Positions 41,756-57,756 of a DNA stretch of 64,000 bases are shown piece after piece (the first letter of the stretch is position 1; each line of letters opens with the position of its first letter). The translations under genes were made by a program, and so were the position numbers. A model generated the notes under the pieces. That model did not search any database, was not told the DNA's origin, and saw only the letters and a program-made list of their open reading frames with translations. This stretch comes from a virus: UHGV virus genome UHGV-0370399; one strand, written 5' to 3'.

Positions 41756-42139
41756 TCAAATACCTGTGCAGCTTCTGTTTTCTAAGAAATACTCCACACC
41801 ATACATAGCTTTTTGCATCAAATCTTCTTTAAACTGGATACGGTGGTTGAGCATCGCCTGTACATCAATATCGTCATGGTGTTTCTCTTTAATGTTTGCA
41901 GATTGCAGGAAATACTCTGCAAGAACACGATACTGGTAGTCAGTCACCTTATCAGTCATCTCTGTCAAAGACTCTTCAGAGATGGGTTTCAGTAGCTCAC
42001 CATTAGCTAGAGCAACACCTTTTACAATCTGGCAAGTATCTTCTGGAACACCTGACAAGTCCACATTTGGGAGTTCTGTTGCATTGACTGGTAAATTCAT
42101 TGCCATAACCATTGCAGCAGCTAATAAAATCTTTTTCAT
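41756..42139 (-). CDS. secreted or periplasmic protein (signal peptide)
   Basis: N-terminal MKKILLAAAMVMAMNLPVNA signal-peptide-like sequence. Confidence 0.5.
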   Translation of the reverse strand: MKKILLAAAMVMAMNLPVNATELPNVDLSGVPEDTCQIVKGVALANGELLKPISEESLTEMTDKVTDYQYRVLAEYFLQSANIKEKHHDDIDVQAMLNHRIQFKEDLMQKAMYGVEYFLENRSCTGI

Positions 42140-42185
42140 AATGACCTCAAAGTTATATTAAATTTTGTATTACATTGAGTATAAA

Positions 42186-42214
42186 AATAAGCTATAACAC
42201 CTGACTTGTCAACA
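42186..42214 (-). promoter_or_regulatory. Candidate minus-strand sigma70-like promoter inside an 11-bp perfect inverted repeat (AATAAGCTATA / TATAGCTTATT)
   Basis: Minus-strand TTGACA (plus 42209-42214), 17-bp spacer, TATTTT; inverted repeat arms at 42187-42197 and 42220-42230. Confidence 0.4.
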
Positions 42215-42239
42215 GATTTTATAGCTTATTTGGCAGATT

Positions 42240-42475
42240 TTTTATAAGGCTACTGCCATCCTTCCATACCAAACCTCACCTGACCTCGCCTAACCCTACC
42301 TTACCCCACCATACAGCACCTTATTAAAACACCCTGTTTAAAGACCTTTTAAAAAGGTAAGTCTCATTTTAATGTAGCTGAGACTAACTACCCATACCGA
42401 ACCTCACCGCACCATACTACACCTGACACCACCTTACACCACCGCACCATACCTGACCGAGCTACACATCACTTA
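42240..42475. repeat. A/C-rich low-complexity segment with two related copies (CATACC(A/G)AACCTCACC...); G/T-rich on the minus strand
   Basis: Direct reading; no ORF; copies near 42255-42320 and 42395-42470. Confidence 0.6.
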
Positions 42476-42559
42476 AAAACCCTTTTCAAAGACTCTTAAG
42501 TGATGCTGGTGAGTACCCGTTGGTTTATGCTGCTCAGCATACTCACCAAATTTTCTATG

Positions 42560-42748
42560 TCAACAACTTTCTAATAAAGTTTTATGAAGATTTTGCTTAA
42601 CAACCCGCCTCACATGCCTGTGCTCTTTCTTAATAAAGAGTGACCTCTTCTTGATAGAGCGCCTATTCTTGTAAGTATTACTAGGATACTTATCATGAAC
42701 CGGACAACAGCTACCCGGATTGGTAAACTTGATAATCTCTCTTTTCAC
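42560..42748 (-). CDS. hypothetical small basic protein
   Basis: 62-aa ORF. Confidence 0.35.
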   Translation of the reverse strand: MKREIIKFTNPGSCCPVHDKYPSNTYKNRRSIKKRSLFIKKEHRHVRRVVKQNLHKTLLESC

Positions 42749-43848
42749 TATTCATAATCCCTAATAACTAACCCGACAGGGAACTGTAAAGAACCCTTAC
42801 GAGTCATCTTCTGAAACTGAACCGTTAAAGGCTTCCCGATAAACTCTTCAGGATGTTCAGCAAGATACTGTTTCTTCTCGTGTGTAGTCTTCCATGAGAC
42901 ATCTACAAAGACGTTAGGAAGCGTCTCTACAACGAACTTACCATGACCACGTTTATCGGTCTTGACACCAGTAACTTTAAACTCTTCAGTGTGCATCTTC
43001 TTGTGCTTAATCAAGAAGTATGAACGGTGACTACACTCGTAGAAAGATTCTTCAGAGATTGAACGGTACATTGCACCTTCAAACTTAGCTTCAACCCACT
43101 TATCATGGGCTTCATCAAACTCTTCCCAAGAATTTACACGGATAGTCTGTACAGGAACAACTCTACAGGTATCCCCAAGCTCAACAATTGGTGAATTATC
43201 AATAACTTCACGACGCTCAGGCCAAGTTTTTGAATTGTCGCAGATATCATACCAGTAGAATTTAAGAAGGTGACGGTCTGGATTGTCAGCATTCTTAATC
43301 ATAGATACAATATCTTCTAAGTCCCAACCATGAGCATAAATCTCTCCATCAAAGTCTTCCACTTGCGGATGTAATTTAAGCAACAAAAGCAAATCTGGGA
43401 TTAGTTCTGTTGGAACGTTGTAAACAGTATTCTCACGAGAATAGGCTGTGAAACTAACTGAATCAGCATCTCTTGAAATCCTACAACGTACACCATCAAG
43501 TTTTGGTTGAGCATCAGCAGGGAACTTCAGATACTTTGCATGGCTAACCTTTGCAGCATCATGAGCAAGCTGTACACCTACCTTCTCAGTATTCTGTGCA
43601 GATTCTTTTGTATAAGCATAACCTTTACGGTCAACTTGCTTTTTATACTTAGCAGCAACTTCAAAGAGAGCTTGCTGTTCAGCGTTACGCTCATTCTTTT
43701 TACCGATGTTCTTAGGCTCTGCTGTATACTCTTCAAACATCATCTTGCCATTCTCTTTACCGTAGGTTGTAATAACTTTGTCACCTACAGCAACACATGA
43801 CCAGACGTTAAAAGAGCCGTCTTTATTTTGTTTGTACAGAATTGTCAT
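42748..43848 (-). CDS. ATP-dependent DNA ligase
   Basis: Adenylation motif I PKLDGVRC (KxDGxR); size (366 aa) like T7-type ligases. Confidence 0.8.
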   Translation of the reverse strand: MTILYKQNKDGSFNVWSCVAVGDKVITTYGKENGKMMFEEYTAEPKNIGKKNERNAEQQALFEVAAKYKKQVDRKGYAYTKESAQNTEKVGVQLAHDAAKVSHAKYLKFPADAQPKLDGVRCRISRDADSVSFTAYSRENTVYNVPTELIPDLLLLLKLHPQVEDFDGEIYAHGWDLEDIVSMIKNADNPDRHLLKFYWYDICDNSKTWPERREVIDNSPIVELGDTCRVVPVQTIRVNSWEEFDEAHDKWVEAKFEGAMYRSISEESFYECSHRSYFLIKHKKMHTEEFKVTGVKTDKRGHGKFVVETLPNVFVDVSWKTTHEKKQYLAEHPEEFIGKPLTVQFQKMTRKGSLQFPVGLVIRDYE

Positions 43849-44051
43849 TTTCTCTTACCACCAATCTCTACGTCGATAACTTGAACATCGCCAGCAACAT
43901 CAAACTTATGTATGATGCTTTCCACAGTATAAGTCCAACCATCAATGCGAACCATCTCACCTTCTCGTGGAACTATTGGATTACGTTGAGCTACAGTTGT
44001 AGTGGAGTGAACAACATCATAACGATAGATATAGTTTACTAGGACTTCCAT
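43845..44051 (-). CDS. hypothetical protein (start trimmed to internal Met with RBS to resolve overlap with the upstream gene)
   Basis: ORF track gives 43845-44150; Met at 44051 has a GAGG RBS and avoids an 89-bp overlap. Confidence 0.4.
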   Translation of the reverse strand: MEVLVNYIYRYDVVHSTTTVAQRNPIVPREGEMVRIDGWTYTVESIIHKFDVAGDVQVIDVEIGGKRK

Positions 44052-44061
44052 CGTGAAAACC

Positions 44062-44322
44062 TCACTCAATAACCGTAGTATGTGATTGTCCATTTTTGCC
44101 ATAGCTGTAAGATGTTGTTGTTTGAGAGTTTGGACATCTGACAACAACAATATCTCTGCTTATAGCATCACCATGTAACTTGTATACTCTGCAATCTTGC
44201 ATCTCTGGTGGGAGGCTATAAGAAGCATTTTTATCTTCATAAGAAGGGTTGCAGCCAGATAGAAAAATAACACCAAGCGCAATTACCACTTTCCACATAA
44301 CACTACTCCTATTACTGTTCAC
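44062..44322 (-). CDS. lipoprotein (signal peptide with lipobox LSGC)
   Basis: N-terminus MWKVVIALGVIFLSGC. Confidence 0.5.
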   Translation of the reverse strand: MNSNRSSVMWKVVIALGVIFLSGCNPSYEDKNASYSLPPEMQDCRVYKLHGDAISRDIVVVRCPNSQTTTSYSYGKNGQSHTTVIE

Positions 44323-44554
44323 GATGTTCTACTTCTCTGTACGTTCGTCGATAGTATATAATAAGCTGTGCTAACTCGTTGCTTTTAACATCTGAACGTA
44401 GCAGTTGCCAATCAAAACCTTTACCGACTCTTCCATATAAACTAAACAGTTTTACTTTGCGTTTCATTTTGGTATACCAATACTCAGAAGTCAATATTAA
44501 TACGTTCGCCCTTAAGGACTCCAGTACGGTCTCTTGCAATCTTGCCGTCAACAA
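44312..44554 (-). CDS. hypothetical protein
   Basis: 80-aa ORF. Confidence 0.4.
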   Translation of the reverse strand: MLTARLQETVLESLRANVLILTSEYWYTKMKRKVKLFSLYGRVGKGFDWQLLRSDVKSNELAQLIIYYRRTYREVEHREQ

Positions 44555-44711
44555 TAAGGATATGTGCAGCCCTTAAAGAGTCACTATTAAAAGCTTTTAC
44601 GAACTTACTAGGCATCACTACAATGGGCATCTCCTGAATCAACTCTGGAGTATAGCAATTGTCGTGAAGTTGCTGAATAACGTCTGCAAGTGTCATTTTT
44701 GATGTCTCCAA
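44484..44711 (-). CDS. hypothetical protein
   Basis: 75-aa ORF. Confidence 0.4.
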   Translation of the reverse strand: METSKMTLADVIQQLHDNCYTPELIQEMPIVVMPSKFVKAFNSDSLRAAHILIVDGKIARDRTGVLKGERINIDF

Positions 44712-44902
44712 TACTCAATGTCAATAAGTTCTTGTGCAATGCTTTTAAGGTTACCTTTCAAGAAAACCTTCTCAGAACCTGAAAGAGATGAATTGTCAAT
44801 TAACCTGTTCATTCTCTCAAACAACTTCTGCTTACGATTTTTGATAGTCTCCTTTGAAGCACCTTTCATCATTGCTGCATGGGTTCTTCCACGATGGCTC
44901 AT
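44693..44902 (-). CDS. hypothetical protein
   Basis: 69-aa ORF. Confidence 0.4.
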   Translation of the reverse strand: MSHRGRTHAAMMKGASKETIKNRKQKLFERMNRLIDNSSLSGSEKVFLKGNLKSIAQELIDIEYWRHQK

Positions 44903-44953
44903 AATCCCTCCTATACAAGATGTAGTATAAGGTACTCTTCCCTGAGCACCTTG

Positions 44954-45478
44954 TCAACTTAGTTTTGCAAACTCTCCGTGGAGTTTAATAGCAGCTTCAC
45001 AGTAAGCTTTATGGGCTTCTTCTGGTGTGTCAAACATACCAAGATGATAGTTTTTACCTTGTAAACGTATCATTGCTCGAAACCTTTTACTTATCTTCTG
45101 TACACCTTTTGGCAACCCAGATGGGGACTTTCTTGACCGATTGCAAGAGTTTTGTGAAGCTGTACAAACCCTTAAATTCAAGTACCTATTGTCCCAACCG
45201 TCCCCATTCTTATGGTCAACCTGTAAGTTTTTATCAGGCAGGTATCCATCCACATATAGTATTGCTAGACGGTTAGCTTGGTAGCCTTTACCATCAAGCA
45301 ATAACTGAACAGACTTGTGACCATCTGTGTTTATCCTATAATTTCCTGCCTTTTTACCTCCAAAACGAGAGTTGAAGTTCTTATTGCCTCGTGATACCGG
45401 CTCTCTAAACTTCCAAGTAAAGACCCCTGTTTCGGGGTCGTAGTCCAATAGCTCCTTAAGACGAATTTCTGTAATCAT
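44954..45478 (-). CDS. HNH homing endonuclease with AP2-like DNA-binding domain
   Basis: Motifs LLDYDPETGVFTW, RLAILYVDGYLP, VDHKNGDGWDNRYLNLRVC, and AP2-like GKNYHLGMFDTPEEAHKAY; paralog of the 55081-55581 gene; start taken at internal Met 45478. Confidence 0.7.
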   Translation of the reverse strand: MITEIRLKELLDYDPETGVFTWKFREPVSRGNKNFNSRFGGKKAGNYRINTDGHKSVQLLLDGKGYQANRLAILYVDGYLPDKNLQVDHKNGDGWDNRYLNLRVCTASQNSCNRSRKSPSGLPKGVQKISKRFRAMIRLQGKNYHLGMFDTPEEAHKAYCEAAIKLHGEFAKLS

Positions 45479-45488
45479 TTCAACACCA

Positions 45489-48188
45489 TCAATGTACTTC
45501 CAACCAGCTCTTACCAACCTTACCTGTGCCAGTTACAAGCGTCTCACTCTTCAAACCTAAATTCTTAGATGCCTGACCATACATCCAGTCAGTTATGGCT
45601 TTCACTTCTTGAGTCATACTTTCTGGACATTCCCAACTGTTTTCATCGTGGTATGCCAGCAAAAGCCTAGCACCAATTGCTGGTTTTCGTCCATTTAATT
45701 TTGTCAACCCTTCTTCACATGCTCTTCTACAAGCAAGGTTAATTGCCTCATTTTGAATCTGAGCCTCCGAACCCATGAGCAAATAATTCAATAACTTATG
45801 TGGAGATTTACACCACAACCAAGCTCCAGCAACCTTTACAAAACCCCCTTTAGAGATTGCAGCAGTCTTACCAAACACCTCTTCAAGTGCCTTTTTAGTT
45901 GCTTTGTAGTCAGCTTCCAAGTCATCTAACAGCTTCTTAATTTTAGGCAAACGGATAAAGTAAGTCTGTTTAGTCAGCGCACCTTCCTGAGTAGTTGCAG
46001 CCTTAATCGTCTTAGCAAACTTCTCATCACCTGCACCGAACAGCAGTGCATAGATACCATTCTTAGCTTTCTTACGGCCTTTGCTAATCTCATGAAGAAG
46101 ATTCTCATCCTGAGTAGCTCGACAAGTCAAGATATCCTGCTCATCATTCAAGCTAAAGTAAATACTGTTCAATGTATGTGCATCAGTCCCTGAATAGACA
46201 ACGTACAGGTCATTCTCAGAGTCATAGCGAAGGTACTTATCAATCTCTGGGTTGAGGTACTCATCAAAATGTTTGCAGTAATAGCGTCCATCTTCTTGAC
46301 GAATGAACTCAATTTCTTCTTTACCTTGCGTTACCGCTTTGGTGAAGTCTTTATCACCCATAAAGTTACAAAGAAGAACTAGCTGGGCTGAGTTCATATC
46401 TACAGAGACAACGTTAGTACCTTCCTCACAAATCCATACTGCCCTCATTGGTTCTCCATAGACAGCAGCACCAGACGGTACGTTTACAATACCATACTGT
46501 GTCATACGTCCAGTTGAAGTACCAAACACCATTGCACCAGCACTAAGGCGACCATCAGGACGAATCTGGTTAAGCCAACCTTTTTCATCATCCTTTGAGT
46601 TCTCAATAGTTCTGCGTCGGTGCATCAAAGTATAGTACTTAGCAATCTTCTGTCCAAGCTCACCTTCAATCGTATCATAAGATGATTCAGTAAGTTTTGG
46701 TGAAGTACGGATTAAGCAAGGTTCAAGCAAATCTGTGTATTTCTTCACAGACCAGTTATGCTCGATGTACTGTACACCTTCATGTTCAACATAACTCAAA
46801 CCACACCGCTCAACCATTTCCTGCCACTTAGGATGCTTTGTAATCATCTTTTTATTGTCTTTGAAACGACAAACTTTGACAGGGCGACCATCTGAGTCTT
46901 TCTTGTAATTCCAGTCATCTGGAACCCAACCAACTGATTTCAAGTAGTCTTTAACAACTGCTACCTGAGTCATACGAGAAACTTCAAACTCAATTGGTGT
47001 ATATGGCGCATCAATCAAACCTGTGTAGCGACTTGACTCAAGTTCAAAGTGGTTAACAACGTGGCTGTTATAGTACTTCACAGTTTTGACTGTTTTTACT
47101 GGTTTCCAGTCTTTGCATTTCTTACCAATCTTTGCGTTCAACTCATTGCAAATTGCACGAGCATCCTTCATTGCTACAAAACCCTCCTTGTACTCTTCAC
47201 CAGTTACAGAGTTGGTTGGTGTATAGCAATTTCTCTTTTCAATGTTAAAAATCTTTGTAGTTGGCTTACCAAATGGTTTGATTTCATAAGTCTGCATCTC
47301 ACCATTACGCACCTGCTGACGATACTTCGTCTTAGGGTACTTGGTAATTCTTTTCAGTCCATCTGCATGACCAAATGCTTCAACATACTCATTCCAAGCT
47401 TTTGCAAACTCTTCTCCAGTGACTTTACCTTTGGTCTTAATAGTTGGAGGTAGATGCGGTTCAACTTCTGAAGCAAGCTCATTAGTCAACTTGTCAAGTT
47501 CCTTTACATGGAACTCCATAAGCTCTTTATCAGCTTTCCAGCCATTGATAGCTTGTTGACTCATCCAGAAAGATGTTTCTTTAGCTCGCATGTAGGTTTC
47601 ATAAGTGTCTATGCCACACTTCTTAAGCTTGAGATATTCATTATCAAGTGCCCGTTTAGTTTTGGCGTTAATACGGATATCTTCTACAACACGAGTGAAG
47701 ATTTCTGCATTCCACACACCCCAATGTTCAATCTCTGGTTTACGAACACCAACACGAGCACCCCATGCAGCCAAACCATGAGCACCTTTATAGCCCTTTG
47801 GAGTTGGTCTATCCATCCACTGAACACGAGACTGGATAAGAGAATCCTGAAAGAAATTACTCCACGGTTTACACTTTGGATTATCAAAGTTCCATAAATC
47901 AGGTGCAATGTGATTGAAAACCCACCAGTCATAACCGAGACCATTATGGATGCAAAGACGTTTTGCCTTTAACGCAAACTCAATGCCTTCACGTAAGCCA
48001 CCCTTAATGTACTTGGTATACTTGTGACCGAGGATAGGCTCATCTGTAAAGACCCATACAGGCGGCTCTTCATCGTCAGATTTATAGTCTGCGAAAGCCA
48101 TTACGTGCACTTTAGTGAACTCAAGGAGTAAACCATCAGTTTCTGTATCACCAACTAAATGTAAGTTTTTAAAATCTACGTTTTCCAT
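45489..48188 (-). CDS. DNA polymerase, family A, with 3'-5' exonuclease domain
   Basis: Exo motif LVGDTETDGL near N-terminus; about 900 aa; start taken at ATG 48188 after GAGGGAG RBS (ORF track began at 48218). Confidence 0.9.
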   Translation of the reverse strand: MENVDFKNLHLVGDTETDGLLLEFTKVHVMAFADYKSDDEEPPVWVFTDEPILGHKYTKYIKGGLREGIEFALKAKRLCIHNGLGYDWWVFNHIAPDLWNFDNPKCKPWSNFFQDSLIQSRVQWMDRPTPKGYKGAHGLAAWGARVGVRKPEIEHWGVWNAEIFTRVVEDIRINAKTKRALDNEYLKLKKCGIDTYETYMRAKETSFWMSQQAINGWKADKELMEFHVKELDKLTNELASEVEPHLPPTIKTKGKVTGEEFAKAWNEYVEAFGHADGLKRITKYPKTKYRQQVRNGEMQTYEIKPFGKPTTKIFNIEKRNCYTPTNSVTGEEYKEGFVAMKDARAICNELNAKIGKKCKDWKPVKTVKTVKYYNSHVVNHFELESSRYTGLIDAPYTPIEFEVSRMTQVAVVKDYLKSVGWVPDDWNYKKDSDGRPVKVCRFKDNKKMITKHPKWQEMVERCGLSYVEHEGVQYIEHNWSVKKYTDLLEPCLIRTSPKLTESSYDTIEGELGQKIAKYYTLMHRRRTIENSKDDEKGWLNQIRPDGRLSAGAMVFGTSTGRMTQYGIVNVPSGAAVYGEPMRAVWICEEGTNVVSVDMNSAQLVLLCNFMGDKDFTKAVTQGKEEIEFIRQEDGRYYCKHFDEYLNPEIDKYLRYDSENDLYVVYSGTDAHTLNSIYFSLNDEQDILTCRATQDENLLHEISKGRKKAKNGIYALLFGAGDEKFAKTIKAATTQEGALTKQTYFIRLPKIKKLLDDLEADYKATKKALEEVFGKTAAISKGGFVKVAGAWLWCKSPHKLLNYLLMGSEAQIQNEAINLACRRACEEGLTKLNGRKPAIGARLLLAYHDENSWECPESMTQEVKAITDWMYGQASKNLGLKSETLVTGTGKVGKSWLEVH

Positions 48189-48248
48189 TTTTACTCCCTC
48201 TAAAATCATTAACCTCATACATTACTGCAAAAAATTATAAAAAGCAAG

Positions 48249-48278
48249 TTGACAATGCACTTGACAAGGTGTTAATCT
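48249..48278 (+). promoter_or_regulatory. Candidate sigma70-like promoter; tandem TTGACA module nearly identical to the one at 9388-9420
   Basis: AGTTGACAATGCACTTGACAAGGTGT matches AGTTGACAAAGTACTTGACAAGGTGT at 24 of 26 positions. Confidence 0.4.
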
Positions 48279-48445
48279 TTGCGAAGTGGGTTTTTACTTA
48301 AAAGGTTACTTAACAGTTTAACTATACAGATACTTTAAAACTCTTAAAAGATTATTTAATAGCTTTTAAAAAGCTTTAAAGTATAACGTATAGAATACGT
48401 TAAGATAAAAGATTAAAACTTAATAGTTACTTAAAAGAGGCTTAC

Positions 48446-48868
48446 ATGCAGAAAATGTTTGTTCACCCAGACATAGCTGACTTTGTTAGAGCTTTGCAGA
48501 AGTTGGAAGAACTTGACATTGCTGCTCAACGGGAATATGCTCACCATCACAGGAGAATGGTTGATATACAACATGAAATAGAGTTGTCTGAAAACTATGA
48601 AGATGACTTAAAATGCTCTGTATTTGAGCATATGAAAGATGTTGCTACAGCTAGACGTAAAGCTAAAGACACAGTTGCTTTACTAGATTCTCTTAAAAAG
48701 AGGTTGCAAAGTGGTACAGACTTGTGTAATCTAGCGTCACTGATTAACGATGTTGAAACTTCTTGGGATAGGCACTATTATCCACGTTCTGAAAAGACAC
48801 TTGACTTTTCTTCATCAGAAAACTTAAAATGTTCTAGAAAGAAACTTAACCAACTGAGAGAGAAATAA
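48446..48868 (+). CDS. hypothetical protein
   Basis: 140-aa ORF, first gene of plus-strand block. Confidence 0.5.
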   Translation: MQKMFVHPDIADFVRALQKLEELDIAAQREYAHHHRRMVDIQHEIELSENYEDDLKCSVFEHMKDVATARRKAKDTVALLDSLKKRLQSGTDLCNLASLINDVETSWDRHYYPRSEKTLDFSSSENLKCSRKKLNQLREK

Positions 48869-48869
48869 T

Positions 48870-49670
48870 ATGAATATCAATGTAGAAAAGATGCTTGAAG
48901 AAAAAGGTATTAACGAAGCATTTTTAATCAATGCCGTAGAAAGCATGGCTATGATTCTTCGTGGGAACAACTACACAGAACAGTTTATGCCTGCAAGCTA
49001 CAACTTGCCTGAAGACAAGTCTGATAACGGTGCTTTTGCAGAACAGGTCAACATGATGCTTTGTGACAAAAAACTTGCTTTAGCATCTATTGTTGTAGGT
49101 GTCGATGCTCTTGCAGAGTTCATTTTTTATGAGATGCAGAAAAATGACTATATTGCCATGACCTCTGAAGAAAAAGACTCACTACTGCTCTTAGATAATA
49201 ATGAGCTAATTGACCTGTTAATTTCGTCAACGAGTGCTGTTATGGCTGCGCTTGAGAAGCGCATGGAAGAGAAACTTTCACGATATGAAAAACTTGATTG
49301 GGGCGTAGAAGAATTAAACCCACGAATCAAAGAGATTATACAGCAAACTAAAGAGTCTTTGGAAGAAGCTGTTGAAAATGACTCTGTAGCTGATATAGAA
49401 CCACTTCAGGTGAAAGTTACACTGATGATTCCAGCTATCTCCACGATGATGAAAATCGTTGCACTAATCCAACTTTCACAGATGATGGGTGTGAGTATTG
49501 AGTTAATTGAGGAGATGACTGGTGGCGTTAGTATGCAAGCAATCAATGATGTTTTGGTGAACATTGGTGCTTCAATCATTGAAGAGAAACTACGCATTAA
49601 CTTCGGTGATGATTTTGTGAAGCAAATCTCAGCTATGGCTGAAAAAGAGTCTGCTGAGCAACTGCACTAA
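48870..49670 (+). CDS. hypothetical acidic protein
   Basis: 266-aa ORF. Confidence 0.5.
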   Translation: MNINVEKMLEEKGINEAFLINAVESMAMILRGNNYTEQFMPASYNLPEDKSDNGAFAEQVNMMLCDKKLALASIVVGVDALAEFIFYEMQKNDYIAMTSEEKDSLLLLDNNELIDLLISSTSAVMAALEKRMEEKLSRYEKLDWGVEELNPRIKEIIQQTKESLEEAVENDSVADIEPLQVKVTLMIPAISTMMKIVALIQLSQMMGVSIELIEEMTGGVSMQAINDVLVNIGASIIEEKLRINFGDDFVKQISAMAEKESAEQLH

Positions 49671-49687
49671 GTCTTTATAAATCTTAC

Positions 49688-49712
49688 AAGCCTCCTTAGT
49701 TGGGGGCTTTTT
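49688..49712 (+). terminator. Possible rho-independent terminator (GCCTCC...GGGGGC then TTTTT)
   Basis: Imperfect hairpin plus T-run. Confidence 0.45.
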
Positions 49713-49731
49713 AGTAATTAAGGGAGATAAA

Positions 49732-50475
49732 ATGAGTAATATTATCGCATTTACTGGAAAGGCACGTTCTGGAAAAGACACCTCATGTTCTATTGTGAAG
49801 AACATCTTAGAGGATGAGTATGGCTACAATGTTGCTGTAATGGCCTTTGCAGACAACCTTAAACTATCTGCATCAAAGATATTTGACTTGACTTGGAATG
49901 ACCTGTACGGTGAAACTAAAGAGACTCCACAGGTTTTTGACTTATCATACTCTGAACTGATGTTTAAAGTTACGGAAGCTATGGAGTTCACCTTCAGAGA
50001 TGAACGTTACCATATGGACTTCAAGCTTATGTCAGAGTTAACCGGACGATTAATCATGGAGCTTAAGAAGGTTGCTAAACCGACTCTATTGACACGTCTG
50101 GGGTTTAGTAAAAAGTATAAATTCTCATCAAGACAAATTCAACAGATTTGGGGTACTGAAGTTGTCCGTAAAGTAATGGGCGACAAGTTCTGGTCTAAAG
50201 ACCTTGAAAAAAGAATGGTTAGATTCCATGAAATGTGCTCACTTAGAAATCAATATGGTTTTGTCTTAATCAGTGATTTAAGATTTGACTCTGAAGCTGA
50301 ATGGCTGAGTAGATTTGCACACCAAACTATTGAAGTAAAAAGAGACAATGTGGACAAAGTTTCATCACATGTTTCAGAAAATGGGATTTCTACAAAATAT
50401 GAGCGTGACATTATTCATAATAATGGTACTCTTGCAGACCTTGAGAACAAGCTAAGAGCCATCATTAAAGTTTAA
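49732..50475 (+). CDS. deoxynucleoside monophosphate kinase-like P-loop kinase
   Basis: N-terminal P-loop IIAFTGKARSGKDT, similar in pattern to T4 gp1-type dNMP kinases. Confidence 0.5.
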   Translation: MSNIIAFTGKARSGKDTSCSIVKNILEDEYGYNVAVMAFADNLKLSASKIFDLTWNDLYGETKETPQVFDLSYSELMFKVTEAMEFTFRDERYHMDFKLMSELTGRLIMELKKVAKPTLLTRLGFSKKYKFSSRQIQQIWGTEVVRKVMGDKFWSKDLEKRMVRFHEMCSLRNQYGFVLISDLRFDSEAEWLSRFAHQTIEVKRDNVDKVSSHVSENGISTKYERDIIHNNGTLADLENKLRAIIKV

Positions 50476-50483
50476 AAGAGAGA

Positions 50484-50684
50484 ATGAAGATGAGAGTAAA
50501 AGACAATTTTAAAGTTATTGACCACCGTTTAGTGGAACTCTCATCTCTTTCCAATGAGGTAATGATTGAACGTCTTAAGAGAGTTGAATCACGAAGGAAA
50601 GAGATTGCAGATGAAATTCATGAACTGGACAAGATTGAAAATGGATTGAAGGCAGAACTACAACGAAGAGGTGCTAATGTCTAA
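50484..50684 (+). CDS. hypothetical coiled-coil protein
   Basis: 66-aa ORF. Confidence 0.45.
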   Translation: MKMRVKDNFKVIDHRLVELSSLSNEVMIERLKRVESRRKEIADEIHELDKIENGLKAELQRRGANV

Positions 50685-52662
50685 AGGTCGTAAATTGAAA
50701 GAGGCTGGTCAGTTTGTTGGTCATTGCGCATGTCCACGTTGTGGTTCATCAGATGCTGGTTCAATCTATCATCATGACGATGATTCTTATTCAATGACTT
50801 GCTTTAGTTGTAACAAAGGTTTCCCAGAGTGGGATTTTGATAAAGGACAAATCGTGAGCACTTATTCTACTGGTTCAGACAATAAAAACCGTACTTTCCG
50901 TGGAATGGATTTAGACGATGTGAAAGAAAACCTTGAAGCAATGGACTTAAAGGATAGGAAGATTCCTGCAAAAGTCCTTGAACGCTTAGGTATCAAGGTT
51001 GACATTGACAGTGACGGTGAAATTGATGCGCACTTCTATCCAACTTACAAACGTAATGAAGATGGTAAGCTAGAACATGTTGGCTACCGTGTTCGTCACC
51101 GTTACCCAGAAGACCATCCAAAAGAGCACCTACGTGGTAAGTTAAAAGACTTTTCTGGTGGTGTTGGAGACATTAAAGGTGAACTAGCAATGTTCGGTTC
51201 ATGGATTGCTCCAGAAGGTGGTAACCGTCTATTCATCTGGGAAGGTGAGATGGAATGTGCGACAGCAATCTATATGACTTCTCTTGCGATTAAGGACAAG
51301 TCTCGTCGTAAGAATTACTGTCACGTATCTGTTCCATCAGGTGCAAACATTAAGTCTATCAAAGACAACTATCAGTACATCACATCATTTGATGAGATTT
51401 ACTTGTGCTTTGATAACGATGAAGCAGGTGCTAAAGCTACCAAAGAGGCTGCTGGTATCCTACCTATTGAGAAGGTTCGCTTATTCCAGTATCCAGAAGG
51501 TGTAAAAGACCTTAACGAGTGGTGGACAAAGTTCTATAAAGAGAAAGATACAGTTCTGGAAGGATTTAAGCAGCGTATCTACAATGCACCTCGTTACTGT
51601 CCTGCTGGTATCAAGAACTTTGCAGACGGTTTTGAGGCAATGAAGAATCGTGGTCAGATTCCATTGATTCCTTTCCCAGAATCTTTCGGGGATTTGAACA
51701 GGCTGACTTATGGTGGTTACGGTTTAGGTGAGATTACAACTCTGGCAGCACCATCTTCAGTGGGTAAATCTGCATACACTCGTGAAATGATTTATACTGC
51801 TTGGAAGGAAACCGATTACAATATTGGTGTAATTCCAGTTGAAGATACCTATGAAGAGTTGATGGAGATGCTCTGTGCAATTCACCTGAGCAAGCAGATT
51901 TCTGAGATTCCTTATGACGAACGTGATTGGGATGAATTGAAGGAAGCACACGCAGAACTATCTAAAGGTCGTCGTATCCACATCGTAGACCATCAAGGGG
52001 CAATTGACCAAGATAACTTGCTGGAGTTTGTTGACTATCTTGTTAATAGTTTAGACTGTAAGATTATTATTCTTGACCCTATTACATTGGCCCTGTCACG
52101 TTCAGATACGGATGAAGAGGAAGTTTTATCTGAGCTATTGCGTCGTTGCAAACGCTACCAGTACGCACAGGTGAACGTCTGTCACGTTCGTAAGAGTGCA
52201 GGTGGTCAGAAGGCTAACTCCGAAGGTGGAGATATCTCTGAAGAGGATATTAAAGGTTCTGGTGCGTATTTCCAGATTTCTATGAACAACATTCTGTTAA
52301 TGCGTAACAAGGTTGACCCAGACCCTGTTAAGAAAAACTTGACAAAAATCAAGTTAACTAAGTGTCGTCGTCATGGTAAGTCAACAGGTATTGCTGGTCA
52401 TACTTGGTACAATCCAGATACAGGACGTCTTATCAAAGCTTCTGGATGTGGTGTTGATATTGATGGTGCAGCAGAAAATATTCGCCAGCAGTTTGGTATT
52501 GGTGAAGCTGAAGACCATTACGATGACTCTTTGCCACATTATGAGGACGAAGTGTTTGACCGTGAGACTGGTGAAGTCTATACTGAAGAGCAGCGTCAAA
52601 GCTCAACGATTCCACCTGTATTAAGTGAGGATGCAGATGACTGCCCGTTCGAAACTGAGTGA
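50677..52662 (+). CDS. DNA primase-helicase (T7 gp4-like fusion: zinc finger, TOPRIM primase, DnaB-family helicase)
   Basis: Zinc ribbon CPRCGSSDAG...CFSCNKG, TOPRIM acidic motif CFDNDEAG, Walker A LAAPSSVGKSAYT, Walker B IIILDP. Confidence 0.85.
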   Translation: MSKGRKLKEAGQFVGHCACPRCGSSDAGSIYHHDDDSYSMTCFSCNKGFPEWDFDKGQIVSTYSTGSDNKNRTFRGMDLDDVKENLEAMDLKDRKIPAKVLERLGIKVDIDSDGEIDAHFYPTYKRNEDGKLEHVGYRVRHRYPEDHPKEHLRGKLKDFSGGVGDIKGELAMFGSWIAPEGGNRLFIWEGEMECATAIYMTSLAIKDKSRRKNYCHVSVPSGANIKSIKDNYQYITSFDEIYLCFDNDEAGAKATKEAAGILPIEKVRLFQYPEGVKDLNEWWTKFYKEKDTVLEGFKQRIYNAPRYCPAGIKNFADGFEAMKNRGQIPLIPFPESFGDLNRLTYGGYGLGEITTLAAPSSVGKSAYTREMIYTAWKETDYNIGVIPVEDTYEELMEMLCAIHLSKQISEIPYDERDWDELKEAHAELSKGRRIHIVDHQGAIDQDNLLEFVDYLVNSLDCKIIILDPITLALSRSDTDEEEVLSELLRRCKRYQYAQVNVCHVRKSAGGQKANSEGGDISEEDIKGSGAYFQISMNNILLMRNKVDPDPVKKNLTKIKLTKCRRHGKSTGIAGHTWYNPDTGRLIKASGCGVDIDGAAENIRQQFGIGEAEDHYDDSLPHYEDEVFDRETGEVYTEEQRQSSTIPPVLSEDADDCPFETE

Positions 52663-52918
52663 TAGCTATAAAAGAGAGGGGTTCACACCCTTCTTTGAAG
52701 AAAAAAGTTTAAATAAATTTCATGAAGAGTGTTTGACAAAGATTGATAGGTTCTATAGAATGCTCCACATGAAATGCGATGGAGAAGTTGAAATAGAACA
52801 ACAGTTCCATCAAAGTATGATTACAGTCATCATTACACTGCCTCAGCATAATATTGGTTGGCTGTTTATAATGAAAGAAAATGTGTTTGAATATCAAGTA
52901 TATCGGAGAATATCATGA
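52625..52918 (+). CDS. hypothetical protein
   Basis: 97-aa ORF overlapping the helicase 3' end. Confidence 0.35.
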   Translation: MRMQMTARSKLSDSYKREGFTPFFEEKSLNKFHEECLTKIDRFYRMLHMKCDGEVEIEQQFHQSMITVIITLPQHNIGWLFIMKENVFEYQVYRRIS

Positions 52919-53071
52919 AACACTCTAAAGCATTTGAAAAAGTTTTTGGGGATTCCTTAAAAGCCACTGCTGGAAAACCAGCAAAATACTATGAAGAAAA
53001 ACGTGTAAGAACTGGAAAAACTGCACGTAAAGCAGCTTCTAAAGATAAGCACAACTTCCAGTAATTAGTAT

Positions 53072-53100
53072 TTGACAATAGAGTATCAACAAATTAGAAT
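53072..53100 (+). promoter_or_regulatory. Candidate sigma70-like promoter (TTGACA, 17 bp, TAGAAT) upstream of the SSB-like gene
   Basis: TTTGACAATAGAGTATCAACAAATTAGAAT read directly. Confidence 0.5.
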
Positions 53101-53136
53101 TGGTACTCTTCATAAATTGAGATAGAGGTTTAAATA

Positions 53137-53994
53137 ATGTCTAAAGTTGTTAAAATGAAAGCTCCGGTAGAGAAGTACAACGGTACTGAACGTCAAACTC
53201 TGCGTTACCTGCTGAAAGATGTCTGGTTTTATTACCTGAACACTTCACCACGTCCGGGTAAAGGTAAATCTATTGACAAGAAATTCCCAGGAAAAGATTG
53301 TAACTACAGCGTATCAATTCTGGCAGAAGACGGTAACAAACTCTTTAAAGAGTTTACTAAGTCTAAGAAGAACCCAGAAGGTTGGGATAAAGTTACTACT
53401 GAAGCAGTTGATGCAGATGACTTCGAAGAGAAGTTTGGTTGCAAACCACCTTTTGAAGCAGACACTTACTACATCTTGAAAGTAAGTCGTGCAGCAGCTT
53501 ATAAAGATGGTGCTGTATGGACAGCTAAACAGTCATTCCCTGTTATGCTTATTGAAGAAGTAAATGGTAAGCGTGTAGCTGTTAAACAGCCGATGAAGAA
53601 AATTAAAGCTCAAGCATCTGATAAACACGAAGATGACAAGAACTATGATGTAATTCATCCAGATATTGCAGTTGGTAACGGTTCTTTTGGTAGTGTGATT
53701 CTTTCTACTCACTTCTACACTTTTGAGAACAATGTTCTGACAAAACCTATTCAGGAACAGTTTATCATTGATACTCTTGTACCTTACACTGGTGGTAACG
53801 GTGCTAATGGTGAACCTGAACTGGATGAAGATGAACTGGCTATGCTTGGTCTTGATGGTGTTGAAGATAACGGTGAAATCACTGAAGAAGACGCAACAGA
53901 CCATAAATCTTCGAATGATTCTGATGATGGTGATGATGAAGACTTGCCAGACCCAGATGACGAAGAAGATGAAGACTTCGATACAGAAGACTAA
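53137..53994 (+). CDS. putative single-stranded DNA-binding protein (acidic C-terminal tail)
   Basis: 285 aa; C-terminal 50 aa very acidic ending ...EDEDFDTED, like T7 gp2.5/T4 gp32-type SSB tails. Confidence 0.45.
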   Translation: MSKVVKMKAPVEKYNGTERQTLRYLLKDVWFYYLNTSPRPGKGKSIDKKFPGKDCNYSVSILAEDGNKLFKEFTKSKKNPEGWDKVTTEAVDADDFEEKFGCKPPFEADTYYILKVSRAAAYKDGAVWTAKQSFPVMLIEEVNGKRVAVKQPMKKIKAQASDKHEDDKNYDVIHPDIAVGNGSFGSVILSTHFYTFENNVLTKPIQEQFIIDTLVPYTGGNGANGEPELDEDELAMLGLDGVEDNGEITEEDATDHKSSNDSDDGDDEDLPDPDDEEDEDFDTED

Positions 53995-54012
53995 TCTCTA
54001 AAAGTTACTTTA

Positions 54013-54040
54013 AAGCCCTGTACTTAGTATGGGGCTTTTT
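54013..54040 (+). terminator. Rho-independent terminator (AGCCC...GGGGCT then TTTTT)
   Basis: Hairpin plus T-run after the SSB-like gene. Confidence 0.5.
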
Positions 54041-54056
54041 CATATGGAGAGCCATA

Positions 54057-55103
54057 ATGGAGAAGTACACATTAACAAAACTTCCCGATTCAGTTACACA
54101 TGTTTTTATTGACTCTGACAGTATTGCCTATAAAGGCGCTTGTGTAGTTGAGAAAGCAAAATATAAATATGTCAATAAACTCACAGCAGAAGAATCTGAA
54201 TCATTTGATAATGCAAAAGATGCTGCAAGATGGTTAGCAGACCAGAGAATCCTTGTGGAAGAGCTTGGCCTGACATTTGATGAAGATGAATGGGAAAGAC
54301 AGACTTGGAAAGAAGCTAAGAGTGAAAAAGAAGCTATCATGGCTACTCAACAGGTGCTTCAGGAATGGCTTAAGATTGTTGGTAAAGAGAGAACTTGGGT
54401 AGGTTATTTAACAGAGAAAGGTGTGCATAAACATAAAGACATTAAAGGTCTTGAGCACCAATATCAAGGTAACCGCAAAGATGCTGTCACACCAACACAC
54501 TTAGTTGCTTGTCGTGAGTATCTTCTGTCAAGACCAGAGTTTAAATTGATTCTTGATGGATTTGAAGCTGACTCTATCGTTATCGCTAAAGCTGAAAAGA
54601 TGGGAAAAAAGGCTGCCTTAATGAGTATTGATAAAGACCTTCGCCAAGCTGAAGGTACTTACTGCATTGATATGACCTATGAAAAATCACCTTTAATTTT
54701 CATTGCTGATAACAACGTTGGTGAAATTTGGGATTGTCCAATAAAATCGACACCAAAAGCTAAGAAGACAGTTGGTGTAGGTTTTAAATTTCTTTGTTAT
54801 CAAGCTGTGGCTGGTGATAATGCGGATAATTACTTTGGTTTAAAGGGTGTTGGCAAAGCTGCTGTGATGAAGGCTCTTGAAGGGAAAACAACTTACAAAG
54901 AGTGTCTTGATGCAATTTACGAGCTATATGCTAAGAAAGACTCCTACACTTATGTATCATGGGATGGTCAAACAATTACCAGAACACCTTTAGAATTAAT
55001 GCAGCAACACTTTTTCTTAGCTTATCAGGAAAGAAATAAAAAAGACGATTTTACTTTTGATAAGTATGGGTGGACACCAAATGTTAACTCAACAAACTCT
55101 TAA
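54057..55103 (+). CDS. 5'-3' exonuclease / flap endonuclease (FEN / RNase H-like)
   Basis: Helix-3-turn-helix motif FGLKGVGKAAVMKAL and acidic clusters (FIDSDS, SIDKD); 348 aa. Confidence 0.6.
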   Translation: MEKYTLTKLPDSVTHVFIDSDSIAYKGACVVEKAKYKYVNKLTAEESESFDNAKDAARWLADQRILVEELGLTFDEDEWERQTWKEAKSEKEAIMATQQVLQEWLKIVGKERTWVGYLTEKGVHKHKDIKGLEHQYQGNRKDAVTPTHLVACREYLLSRPEFKLILDGFEADSIVIAKAEKMGKKAALMSIDKDLRQAEGTYCIDMTYEKSPLIFIADNNVGEIWDCPIKSTPKAKKTVGVGFKFLCYQAVAGDNADNYFGLKGVGKAAVMKALEGKTTYKECLDAIYELYAKKDSYTYVSWDGQTITRTPLELMQQHFFLAYQERNKKDDFTFDKYGWTPNVNSTNS

Positions 55104-55581
55104 AGAATACCTGCACTATGACCCCGAAACAGGGGTCTTTACTTGGTTAGTTGGTAGAAGAGGTAAGGCCAAAGCTGGCTCAGTAGCAGGTCTTAAACAC
55201 CATAGTGGTTATATCTATATAAAACTCTTCGGAAAAAGATATGCAGCACACAGACTGGCAGTCTTGTATATGAAAGGCTACCTCCCAAAATTTGTTGACC
55301 ACAAGAATGGTATCAGGCACGACAACTGGTTCGACAATTTGAGAGAGTGTAGCAGGTCAGACAACAACTGCAATGCAGTCAAAAGAAAAGATAATAAGTC
55401 TGGTGTGAAGGGTGTATATTACCACAAGCAAAGAGGTAGATGGGCTGCACAAGTCAAGCATAATAAAGTATGCTACCATCTAGGTTTATTTGACTCTATC
55501 ACTGAGGCTGAATCAGTTGTCAAAAAGAAAAGAGAAGAACTACATAAAGAGTTTTCAAATCACGGAGAAGCTTATGAATGA
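55081..55581 (+). CDS. HNH homing endonuclease with AP2-like domain
   Basis: Motifs LHYDPETGVFTW, RLAVLYMKGYLP, VDHKNGIRHDNWFDNLREC, GVYYHKQRGRWAAQV; start taken at Met 55081. Confidence 0.7.
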   Translation: MLTQQTLKEYLHYDPETGVFTWLVGRRGKAKAGSVAGLKHHSGYIYIKLFGKRYAAHRLAVLYMKGYLPKFVDHKNGIRHDNWFDNLRECSRSDNNCNAVKRKDNKSGVKGVYYHKQRGRWAAQVKHNKVCYHLGLFDSITEAESVVKKKREELHKEFSNHGEAYE

Positions 55582-56075
55582 AGATTAAAGGATTTGGCAA
55601 TTGCCCTACCTATGGTCATTGGGTGTCTTTATGTGGGGAAGTTGACCCCACTAAACATTTTGGCTTTGTCTATTTAGTGCACTGTAAGAAGACTGGACAA
55701 TATTATATCGGAAAGAAACAGCTTAACAGTGTGACCAAAAGAAAAGTTGCTGGGAAGACTCGGAAGAAGGTAGTCACTAAGGAAAGTGATTGGATGACTT
55801 ACGAAACCTCTTCTGAGTATATTAAAAAAGATATTGAGAGCTTTGGAAAAGAATTTTTTGACTTTTACATTATCCAAACCTACTACACAAAAGGTGGCCT
55901 AGTCTATGGTGAAGCAAACCTTCAACATAAATTCGATGTAATGACAAAAAGGATTGACTCTAAGCTCAGACTCTTCTACAATGCCAATATTGCAGCAATT
56001 AAGTTTATTACTAAAGAAACTTATGAAGATGCTGAAAAAAGAATCCATAAGGTAATGAAAGCAAATTGTGCTTGA
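55578..56075 (+). CDS. GIY-YIG-like nuclease (possible second homing endonuclease)
   Basis: N-terminal FGFVYLVHCKKTGQYYIGKK fits the GIY-(10-11)-YIG spacing pattern. Confidence 0.4.
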   Translation: MKIKGFGNCPTYGHWVSLCGEVDPTKHFGFVYLVHCKKTGQYYIGKKQLNSVTKRKVAGKTRKKVVTKESDWMTYETSSEYIKKDIESFGKEFFDFYIIQTYYTKGGLVYGEANLQHKFDVMTKRIDSKLRLFYNANIAAIKFITKETYEDAEKRIHKVMKANCA

Positions 56076-56081
56076 TAACTA

Positions 56082-56327
56082 TTGAGAGAGAATAAAATGT
56101 TTAACAAAAGCAAAGCTGTGAGTCATGTAGCAAAAGTTGACAGTAAGATTGAAGAACTTGAGCGCATTCTTGCAAATGCTAGAGAGTCAATAATTAAAGA
56201 AGTTGAAGCTGTTGAATCACAAATGCAGCATCTAATACTTAAACGCCAAGAGCTACGTGAGCATCTGGAATATATTGAAACACGAGAGCTAAAGGTTAAC
56301 AGATTTTTAAGGAGTCCAAATGTTTAA
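56082..56327 (+). CDS. hypothetical coiled-coil protein
   Basis: 81-aa ORF. Confidence 0.45.
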   Translation: MRENKMFNKSKAVSHVAKVDSKIEELERILANARESIIKEVEAVESQMQHLILKRQELREHLEYIETRELKVNRFLRSPNV

Positions 56328-57075
56328 CTCAAGAGAAGCAGTAAAAAACTGGAATCTTCGTTGTGGAAACACTCAAAAGCAACCTTACAGTGATGAGTAT
56401 TGGGAATCTTTAAAATCCCAGTCTCTGTGTATGCTGGAAGAAGCAAAAGAGCTTGTAAAAGCAATTGAAGAGAAAGACCCCATTGAGACACTGGATGCTC
56501 AGGCAGATTTGCAATATGTTCTTGACGGTTTGATTTACCTGTCACAACATGACCATAACGGTGCTATGAAAGCTGTTTGCCGTAATAATGACCTGAAGTA
56601 CACAGATGACTATGAAGAAGCTTTAAAACGTCTTGCAGATATTGAGAAGCGTACTGGTCAAGAGTGTATTATCAGAATGTCAGTAGTTGATGGTAAAGAG
56701 TGGTATGCCATTGTTCGTGCAGCAGATGGGAAGATTATGAAGCAATCGAATCTCCCTAAAGTACAGCTTGGTGAATACATTGTAGAACTTGAAAGCCAAG
56801 AACTTTTTGTGGTAGTATCTGAGACATGCGTTATCTGCAAAGGTATTGTAGATAGTTTAAAGGATTTAGGTGTAGATGGTTTTGTAGAAGTTAATCCAAT
56901 TACCTCTAAAGCAGATAAAGACTTCTGTAAAGAGAATGGACTATGGATTGCAGACATTATCTACTATGATGGTGAGCAGTTCCATGTAACCTCATACCCG
57001 AAACTGAATTATGATGCTAATAACCTGAAGTGCTGGTTAAAAGGGGTTGGTTATAATGGATTCACAGAACATTAA
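56320..57075 (+). CDS. hypothetical protein with MazG-like nucleotide pyrophosphohydrolase N-terminal region
   Basis: Pattern EEAKELVKAIEEKDPIETLDAQADLQYVLDGL resembles all-alpha NTP pyrophosphatase (MazG/HisE) helices. Confidence 0.35.
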   Translation: MFNSREAVKNWNLRCGNTQKQPYSDEYWESLKSQSLCMLEEAKELVKAIEEKDPIETLDAQADLQYVLDGLIYLSQHDHNGAMKAVCRNNDLKYTDDYEEALKRLADIEKRTGQECIIRMSVVDGKEWYAIVRAADGKIMKQSNLPKVQLGEYIVELESQELFVVVSETCVICKGIVDSLKDLGVDGFVEVNPITSKADKDFCKENGLWIADIIYYDGEQFHVTSYPKLNYDANNLKCWLKGVGYNGFTEH

Positions 57076-57379
57076 TAAAGAGGGTGTGGCTCAGAAGAGC
57101 CACTTCTCAAACTACAATATTTCTATGACGGTGTTTATGAATGACCCGTTACTAGAAAAATATGGTGAGACTCCAGATACACTTCTGGACAATGAACAAG
57201 TTTTAAAAGCAGTCCTGTACAAATACGGGATTGATATTGAGAAAGAATATTCCTTTGAAATCTGCCAACACAGGAATACTTTCGGTAAAGTTGTGATGGC
57301 TCCACTCTTTATGGGTGTAGAAAGGACTGACTATGGTTGGTTGTATCTAAAAAGAAACTTGGAGAAATACCGTGTCTAA
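57047..57379 (+). CDS. hypothetical protein
   Basis: 110-aa ORF. Confidence 0.4.
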   Translation: MVIMDSQNINKEGVAQKSHFSNYNISMTVFMNDPLLEKYGETPDTLLDNEQVLKAVLYKYGIDIEKEYSFEICQHRNTFGKVVMAPLFMGVERTDYGWLYLKRNLEKYRV

Positions 57380-57710
57380 AGCAAAAAAGCTATCTTATGA
57401 TGATATTGTCTCAGGTGCTAAGTTAGGCGTTGACAGCCTCGGACAAGATGTTAAGCACGGGGACACAGTTATGTACTGTGATGACCGAAGAGGTAGAAGT
57501 GCAATCTTGTTTGGAAGAATTGTTTGCAAGATGCGAGGCAATTACGTTGTTGCAGACATGGATGTGAACGTTACACAAAAACTTGAAACACTTATGGATG
57601 ATAATACATCATCATGGTTCTCCCTGAATTGTATGCACACTTCTTCAGTCACAAAAGTAAGTGATAAGTTTTACGATATGTGGCAGAATGAGCAAATTTT
57701 CAAGATTTAA
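57372..57710 (+). CDS. hypothetical protein
   Basis: 112-aa ORF followed by terminator. Confidence 0.45.
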   Translation: MSKAKKLSYDDIVSGAKLGVDSLGQDVKHGDTVMYCDDRRGRSAILFGRIVCKMRGNYVVADMDVNVTQKLETLMDDNTSSWFSLNCMHTSSVTKVSDKFYDMWQNEQIFKI

Positions 57711-57714
57711 ACTA

Positions 57715-57738
57715 GGGAGCCTCTTCGGAGGCTCTTTT
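57715..57738 (+). terminator. Rho-independent terminator (GGGAGCCTC-TTCG-GAGGCTC then TTTT)
   Basis: Perfect hairpin with TTCG tetraloop and T-run. Confidence 0.75.
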
Positions 57739-57756
57739 CATCTGTAGGATTCAAAA

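Follow-up and report, generated by a model that had tools for sequence, protein, structure and literature searches.

The window, a stretch of 64,000 nucleotides of viral DNA, comes from a Felix O1-like phage (Felixounavirus, Ounavirinae) with up to 100% identity to deposited genomes. The 4.5 kb surrounding the endonuclease gene described here are 98–99% identical to Felixounavirus LF82P1 and LF82P2, with 89–97% identity to dozens of phages of Escherichia, Salmonella and Shigella, and one IMG/VR contig matches the window at 100% over 8.5 kb. An uninterrupted gene encoding a family-A DNA polymerase of 909 amino acid residues (pol; 45489–48218, minus strand; PF00476, E 1.2e-15) ends with a TGA codon at 45491–45489, its last histidine codon and stop codon forming the 5′ junction of the endonuclease cassette. 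A 10-nt spacer (TGGTGTTGAA; 45479–45488, minus strand), which is part of the inserted cassette and missing in empty alleles, separates pol from a predicted free-standing HNH-AP2 homing endonuclease gene coding for 174 residues (44954–45478, minus strand; ATG at 45478, TGA stop at 44956–44954), assigned from its open reading frame, its domains and PHROG 99, and referred to below as the type A allele. A preliminary description of this DNA had reported an open reading frame at exactly 44954–45478, directly downstream of the DNA polymerase gene and on the same strand, and these points were borne out, both genes lying on the minus strand with a 10-nt gap between them. Its statement that the endonuclease starts 11 nt after the polymerase stop holds if the start base is itself counted, as the eleventh, the spacer as such being 10 nt long.

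Gene callers and some GenBank records place the start of this gene at an upstream TTG codon (45517), which gives a protein of 187 residues overlapping pol; we preferred the ATG at 45478, because the N-termini of 62 homologues align on it. A weak SD-like GGTG lies inside the 10-nt spacer, 5 nt before this ATG. No promoter-like sites were found on the minus strand between 45700 and 45478 (approximately 220 nt upstream of the gene), so that co-transcription of the endonuclease gene with pol is the simplest inference. The description of the gene as free-standing is in agreement with our data, as it is a separate open reading frame outside pol and no Rfam family, intron families included, reached the gathering threshold in the region 42000–58000. 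Base composition was considered as an indication of foreign origin and set aside, since the GC content of the gene (40.8% vs 39.1% for the window, at the 70th percentile) is uninformative.

At its other end, the endonuclease stop codon falls inside the TTGACA of a conserved spacer (44903–44957, minus strand), present in empty and filled alleles, which holds the 3′ junction of the cassette and comprises TTGACA, a 9-bp hairpin (AGGTGCTCA-GGGAAG-AGTACCT), TATACT and the ribosome-binding site of the next gene. This post-pol spacer measures 61 nt in empty alleles, is highly conserved across genera (Felixounavirus and Mooglevirus) and is unique in the window. Its annotation as a sigma-70 promoter, found in the AYO145A record, was rejected: TTGACA and TATACT are 22 nt apart and a promoter scanner makes no call. 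The hairpin is no more stable than shuffled sequences (z −1.25). Next comes a gene coding for 69 residues (PHROG 5180; 44693–44902, minus strand), which only some relatives possess. Variability extends to the small genes after pol in general (44484–44902, minus strand, in the window, and the corresponding regions of relatives): the 69-residue gene is missing in many relatives, and in UAB_Phi87 and ESCO49 an additional 72-residue gene follows the spacer, ahead of the next gene and with no nuclease gene in its vicinity.

The 174-residue protein matches the Pfam HNH_3 family (PF13392) at 47.1 bits, against a cut-off of 24.8 (E 1.8e-12), and PHROG 99, 'HNH endonuclease', with E 2.8e-59. Its HNH_3 nuclease motif (residues 67–111; 45146–45280, minus strand) aligns to the active-site region of I-HmuI, the closest solved structure by sequence (1u3e, E 8.6e-5), the alignment extending across the VDHKxG...NLR...N active-site region. 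Asp88, Asn101, Arg103 and Asn113 are invariant in the 62 homologues and His89 is nearly so (at least 90%). The AP2-like DNA-binding domain (residues ~125–170; 44969–45106, minus strand) was found with Pfam at E 2.3e-6 but only 28.2 bits, below the cut-off of 33.3, and sequence matches in the PDB to plant AP2/ERF chains are weak (E 0.012–0.6, residues 131–173). An AlphaFold model built with the 62 homologues (pLDDT 93.5, pTM 0.84) predicts a C-terminal three-stranded sheet (residues 126–129, 132–139 and 142–149) followed by a long helix (residues 152–170). When this model was compared with known structures using Foldseek, I-HmuI was retrieved (1u3e; E 3e-5, probability 1.00, 23% identity), with a low global TM-score of 0.39 because the C-terminal domains differ, together with the AP2 domain of AtERF1 (1gcc; target TM-score 0.71, rmsd 0.8 Å, 35% identity over 51 columns) and further AP2 domains (7et5 and 7wq5). 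Unlike type A, the paralogue at 55081–55581 and types B to D (see below) score above the Pfam AP2 cut-off; type A lacks the tryptophan usual in the second AP2 strand, which may explain its low score. Given the HNH_3 and PHROG 99 matches, the similarity to I-HmuI, the predicted AP2 fold and the conserved catalytic residues, the HNH-AP2 identity proposed in the preliminary description stands, its AP2 part resting on the modelled fold and not on the Pfam threshold.

To describe the distribution of the gene, we assembled the surroundings of pol homologues from 31 IMG/VR loci, together with several GenBank regions, which gave 34 non-redundant loci, and classified them by what separates the pol stop from the next conserved gene. 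The site is occupied in 19 of the 34 loci. Four carry type A, the window allele (88–100% amino acid identity), and the other fifteen have members of three further HNH-AP2 families, with 40–56% identity to the window protein: type B (six loci, 53–56%), type C, the Felix O1 allele (four loci, 40–43%), and type D/E (five loci, 44–49%). Thirteen loci are endonuclease-free, twelve of them with only the conserved 61-nt spacer and one with the empty spacer followed by the extra 72-residue gene, and the two remaining loci, from Erwinia phages, have a different organisation. The other families occupy the same nucleotide position as type A, with identical junctions across loci. A complete type A gene is present in 28 of approximately 260 GenBank Felixounavirus-like records sharing the flanks, and the uninterrupted empty junction in about 16 of 35 such records that were sampled. 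The comparison of the pol 3′ region in relatives with and without the insert, proposed in the preliminary description, thus revealed a polymorphic site with clean insertions and natural insert-free alleles; the situation considered there, of a gene present at this position in all relatives, is not the one observed, as 13 of the 34 loci are without it.

The two Erwinia loci are phiEa21-4-like contigs from more distant Ounavirinae, in which an HNH-AP2 homologue with 34–35% identity lies directly upstream of pol (L029:3477–3932 and L033:3477–3932) and about 1.35 kb of other genes follow pol. We also considered an apparent deletion scar of the endonuclease gene in Shigella phage vB_SflM_004 (MK295205.1), in which the end of pol and TGGTGTTGAAATGAT run directly into the spacer. 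This candidate was rejected, because twelve collinear type A fragments, most of them 100% identical and adjoining in their coordinates, alternate with Moogle-like sequence along ~3 kb (46.9–50.3 kb of the record; L057:2748–5715), a pattern that points to two phages having been assembled into one chimeric or merged record and not to biology.

Sister-phage comparisons define the limits of the cassette. Empty alleles read TGG CTT/TAT GAR GTW CAC TAA TTAGTR TTGACARGGTGCTCA, and the window allele reads TGG TTG GAA GTA CAT TGA TGGTGTTGAA ATG, followed by the gene and by AAA CTA AGT TGA CAAGGTGCTCA. Moogle (empty) and Michonne (type D/E) share 96.1% identity until 14 nt short of the pol end, after which they are set apart by an insertion of ~503 nt. 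ESCO49 has an empty allele on the same pol 3′ haplotype as the window (96.5% identity over the last 1.7 kb of pol), and its first difference from L005, a type D locus with that same haplotype, is the third base of the last histidine codon (GTACA|C TAA vs GTACA|T TGA). A second, more distant empty allele is that of pEC-M719-6WT.1, with 89% identity to the window pol. Based on the Moogle/Michonne and ESCO49/L005 pairs, the cassette extends from within the last histidine codon of pol (GTACA|T TGA...) to a point immediately ahead of TTGACA.

The four families are not equally divergent along the gene. The last ~70 nt of the endonuclease open reading frame (44954–45023, minus strand) have 87–100% nucleotide identity across all four (93–100% to the window outside the Mooglevirus allele), and the Felix O1 type is identical over its last ~106 nt, or 35 residues, whereas the gene centre is only 25–70% identical between the window and the other families. 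We noticed that a polymorphic Ile/Val/Met codon within these ~70 nt is common to several HNH-AP2 families, and because this polymorphism crosses families the segment behaves as a common flank and not as part of one allele. The conservation pattern suggests a function as a 3′ recombination arm common to the families. This arm corresponds to the AP2 helix, and the variable centre to the nuclease motif and the AP2 strands, which would be, according to the model, the DNA-contacting part. Cassettes have been swapped between near-identical phages: the window, LF82P1 and LF82P2 carry type A, and L005, LF82P3 and LF82P5 carry type D, the breakpoints falling ~14 nt short of the pol end and ~70 nt short of the endonuclease gene end. 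Over five type A alleles, dN/dS is 0.03–0.13, with dS up to 0.8 and mostly synonymous differences, which indicates that type A is under purifying selection; the divergent GE_vB_BS sequence (MG969407, UNVERIFIED) was left out of this calculation and rejected as a type A allele, both its pol and its endonuclease gene being full of frameshifts.

The window contains exactly two full HNH-AP2 genes. The second (55081–55581, plus strand; 166 residues) follows a 5′–3′ exonuclease-like gene, and it had been described as a close paralogue; the gene is there, but it is a distant relative, with 41% identity by BLASTP (E 8e-33) and 45% in the multiple alignment, and HNH-AP2 genes at the post-pol site of other phages are nearer to type A (53–56%). 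The site of the paralogue (54500–56700, plus strand) is itself polymorphic: many relatives, among them LinBro, EC106 and LMP34, span it with ~490 nt less and no HNH gene, and other relatives match the region only from the GIY-YIG gene onward. The two HNH-AP2 sites vary independently, since LMP34 has the type A gene at pol and lacks the paralogue. The GIY-YIG gene (55578–56075, plus strand) codes for a SegE-like endonuclease (PF19835, E 9e-28) and overlaps the paralogue by 4 nt, which constitutes a tandem endonuclease pair; PHROG 447 and many GenBank records name its product 'NAD synthetase', an apparent propagated misannotation. An open reading frame of 151 residues (13852–14304, plus strand) has a C-terminal zinc-type HNH motif of a different HNH family (PF01844, E 7.7e-5, just above threshold). 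Five relatives (L021–L025) have an insert of ~806 nt inside pol, at motif B (...KAKNGIYA | LLFGAGDEK...; L022:6171–6978 in a Salmonella phage Si3 contig, near window position 46045). It carries a 160-residue Endonuclease_7 open reading frame (PF02945, E 9e-20) and has a sub-threshold match to a group I intron (RF00028, 26 bits vs a gathering score of 50, E 2e-4), and the pol genes containing it are annotated as two pieces in GenBank. A different extra segment in pol, of ~270 nt, is present in L034.

The element is of a known kind. HNH-AP2 homing endonucleases have been reported in Felix O1, among others (Magnani, 2004, as cited in PMC5318435 and PMC10448857), and the class was first described partly from this phage, which is reported to have six homing endonuclease gene copies (PMC8300805); 29% of AP2-associated HNH homing endonuclease genes adjoin DNA polymerase genes (PMC10448857). 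The gene at the post-pol position is annotated as 'HNH/homing endonuclease' in XTG1, ekra, Mushroom, Alf5 and others. The counterpart in Felix O1, ORF95 (Felix01p176; NP_944955), lies directly after pol, at the same site, and has the same HNH_3 and AP2 architecture besides the identical 3′ end; it differs from the window gene over the rest of the protein (40–43% amino acid identity) and overlaps the 3′ end of pol by 19 nt, in place of the 10-nt spacer. I-HmuI, the nicking homing endonuclease encoded in the DNA polymerase intron of Bacillus phage SPO1 (PDB 1U3E) and the nearest solved structure in fold as well as in sequence, resembles the window protein in its N-terminal HNH_3-type nuclease, its DH...N...N motif and its association with a phage polymerase gene, but it is intron-encoded and its C-terminal DNA-binding module is other than AP2. 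Comparable in genetic organisation are T4 MobE, SegF and SegG, which spread by intronless homing, and the AP2-associated 'IPA-HNH' genes of ICP1-like phages: like the window gene, these free-standing genes have essential replication genes as neighbours and occur in some relatives but not in others (PMC2790892, PMC10448857). The divergence of the IPA-HNH nuclease domains puts them beyond the reach of the Pfam HNH_3 profile, whereas the window protein is a canonical HNH_3 member. The T4 Seg and Mob enzymes bind DNA through other modules, and their cuts usually fall hundreds of bp away from the insertion site; for the window gene, the junction sequences point to a putative cut site at or very near the insertion point. 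Domain exchange between homing endonuclease genes occurs (PMC2790892, PMC10448857); genes at one site may be homologous or not, and exchange between cognate ones has been described in other phages (PMC10448857).

We hypothesize, with a probability of about 0.78, that the gene is a free-standing HNH-AP2 homing endonuclease gene, inserted between pol and the conserved spacer, that spreads by homing into insert-free alleles. Site polymorphism among relatives supports the mobility that this reading would require of the element, and the low dN/dS of type A is also in its favour. Presumably lacking a separate promoter, the endonuclease gene would be transcribed with pol; its translation would start from the weak GGTG site, or ribosomes would re-initiate once they have terminated on pol. 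During a mixed infection, the protein would bind DNA through the AP2 sheet and nick or cut the insert-free allele near the junction of the pol stop and the spacer (TGG YWK GAR GTW CAC TAA TTAGTR TTGACA); this putative target site is inferred from the junction positions alone. Recombinational repair from endonuclease-carrying genomes would then copy the cassette in, and the carrier allele would be protected, as the insertion splits the target site. Pol and the last ~70 nt would serve as homology arms, which would also allow the four families to replace one another. Enzymes of the I-HmuI type are site-specific nickases of phage polymerase genes (PMC3428280), and for this reason we consider nicking as likely as double-strand cutting for the predicted nuclease, by analogy. 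A literature search for nicking or cleavage data on Felixounavirus HNH-AP2 proteins retrieved annotation-level mentions only.

The distribution could also be the product of ordinary homologous recombination between co-infecting phages, with homology provided by pol and by the conserved 3′ arm and spacer, acting on a gene whose active nuclease leaves this site unbroken and may cut elsewhere in trans or degrade rival genomes in inter-phage competition. Several observations are in line with this. The pol 3′ haplotypes form mosaics whose link to the endonuclease type is loose, the polymorphic codon in the 3′ arm is common to several families, and the neighbouring small genes (g69 and g72) also come and go without any nuclease. 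In an alignment of the last 900 nt of pol, no column separates empty from filled alleles without exception; the strongest association with occupancy (0.92) is located within the last 21 nt, where 'filled-type' TAT GAG codons are also carried by empty alleles such as that of ESCO49. In that lineage only CAC TAA vs CAT TGA tracks occupancy. The mosaic haplotypes and the lack of fixed columns indicate that ordinary recombination clearly contributes as well. As the whole explanation we nevertheless consider it unlikely, since four HNH-AP2 families are found at exactly one nucleotide position, where nothing else is found, the insertions are clean and co-variation begins within ~14 nt of the junction. 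The final ~240 nt of the window pol constitute, moreover, a haplotype of their own, sharply delimited near 45728 when compared with AYO145A and wV8. Among the best 60 GenBank matches, this haplotype, at no less than 96% identity, is associated with 26 occupied sites (type A or D) and one reliable empty site, which fits flanks hitch-hiking with the endonuclease gene.

Two other explanations assign the protein a different fate. It may have been domesticated, as an AP2 DNA-binding regulator or as an accessory nickase in replication or recombination, and no longer be selfish. The strong purifying selection (dN/dS ~0.1), the location in the replication module, with probable co-transcription with pol, and the conversion of AP2 domains into transcription factors elsewhere (PMC5318435) would all suit a domesticated protein. 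A resident function of this kind seems nonetheless very improbable for a gene that is dispensable (~40–45% of relatives have an empty site), interchangeable with proteins only 40–56% identical to it, and still in possession of its catalytic motif. Least credible of all is that the gene is a decaying, inactive remnant. Decay after fixation is a prediction of homing-cycle theory, and the type A AP2 region, without the typical tryptophan, falls below the Pfam cut-off; however, every type A allele that was examined from verified records retains an intact open reading frame, the model is confident over the full length, and this intactness, together with the low dN/dS and the invariant catalytic residues, argues against decay.

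Beyond homing into empty alleles, the post-pol site may be an arena of four mutually displacing HNH-AP2 families, each enzyme cutting rival-occupied as well as empty alleles, a scenario that we regard as speculative and rather unlikely. The near-identity of the last ~70 nt may then be upheld by a role as a common landing arm or, possibly, as a piece of the recognition site, and the locus would represent, in nature, a set of competing homing endonucleases whose nuclease and specificity modules can be exchanged.

For this locus, the present analysis adds the insertion point to the nucleotide and the alternation, at a single site, of four related families with a shared 3′ arm. The natural insert-free alleles of ESCO49 (OM386663), AYO145A (KR014248) and wV8 are candidate substrates. 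Phylogenies based on the 3′ end of pol call for caution, and the locus offers a convenient and well-sampled system for the study of homing, of nicking vs cutting, and of endonuclease turnover in a therapeutically used phage genus.
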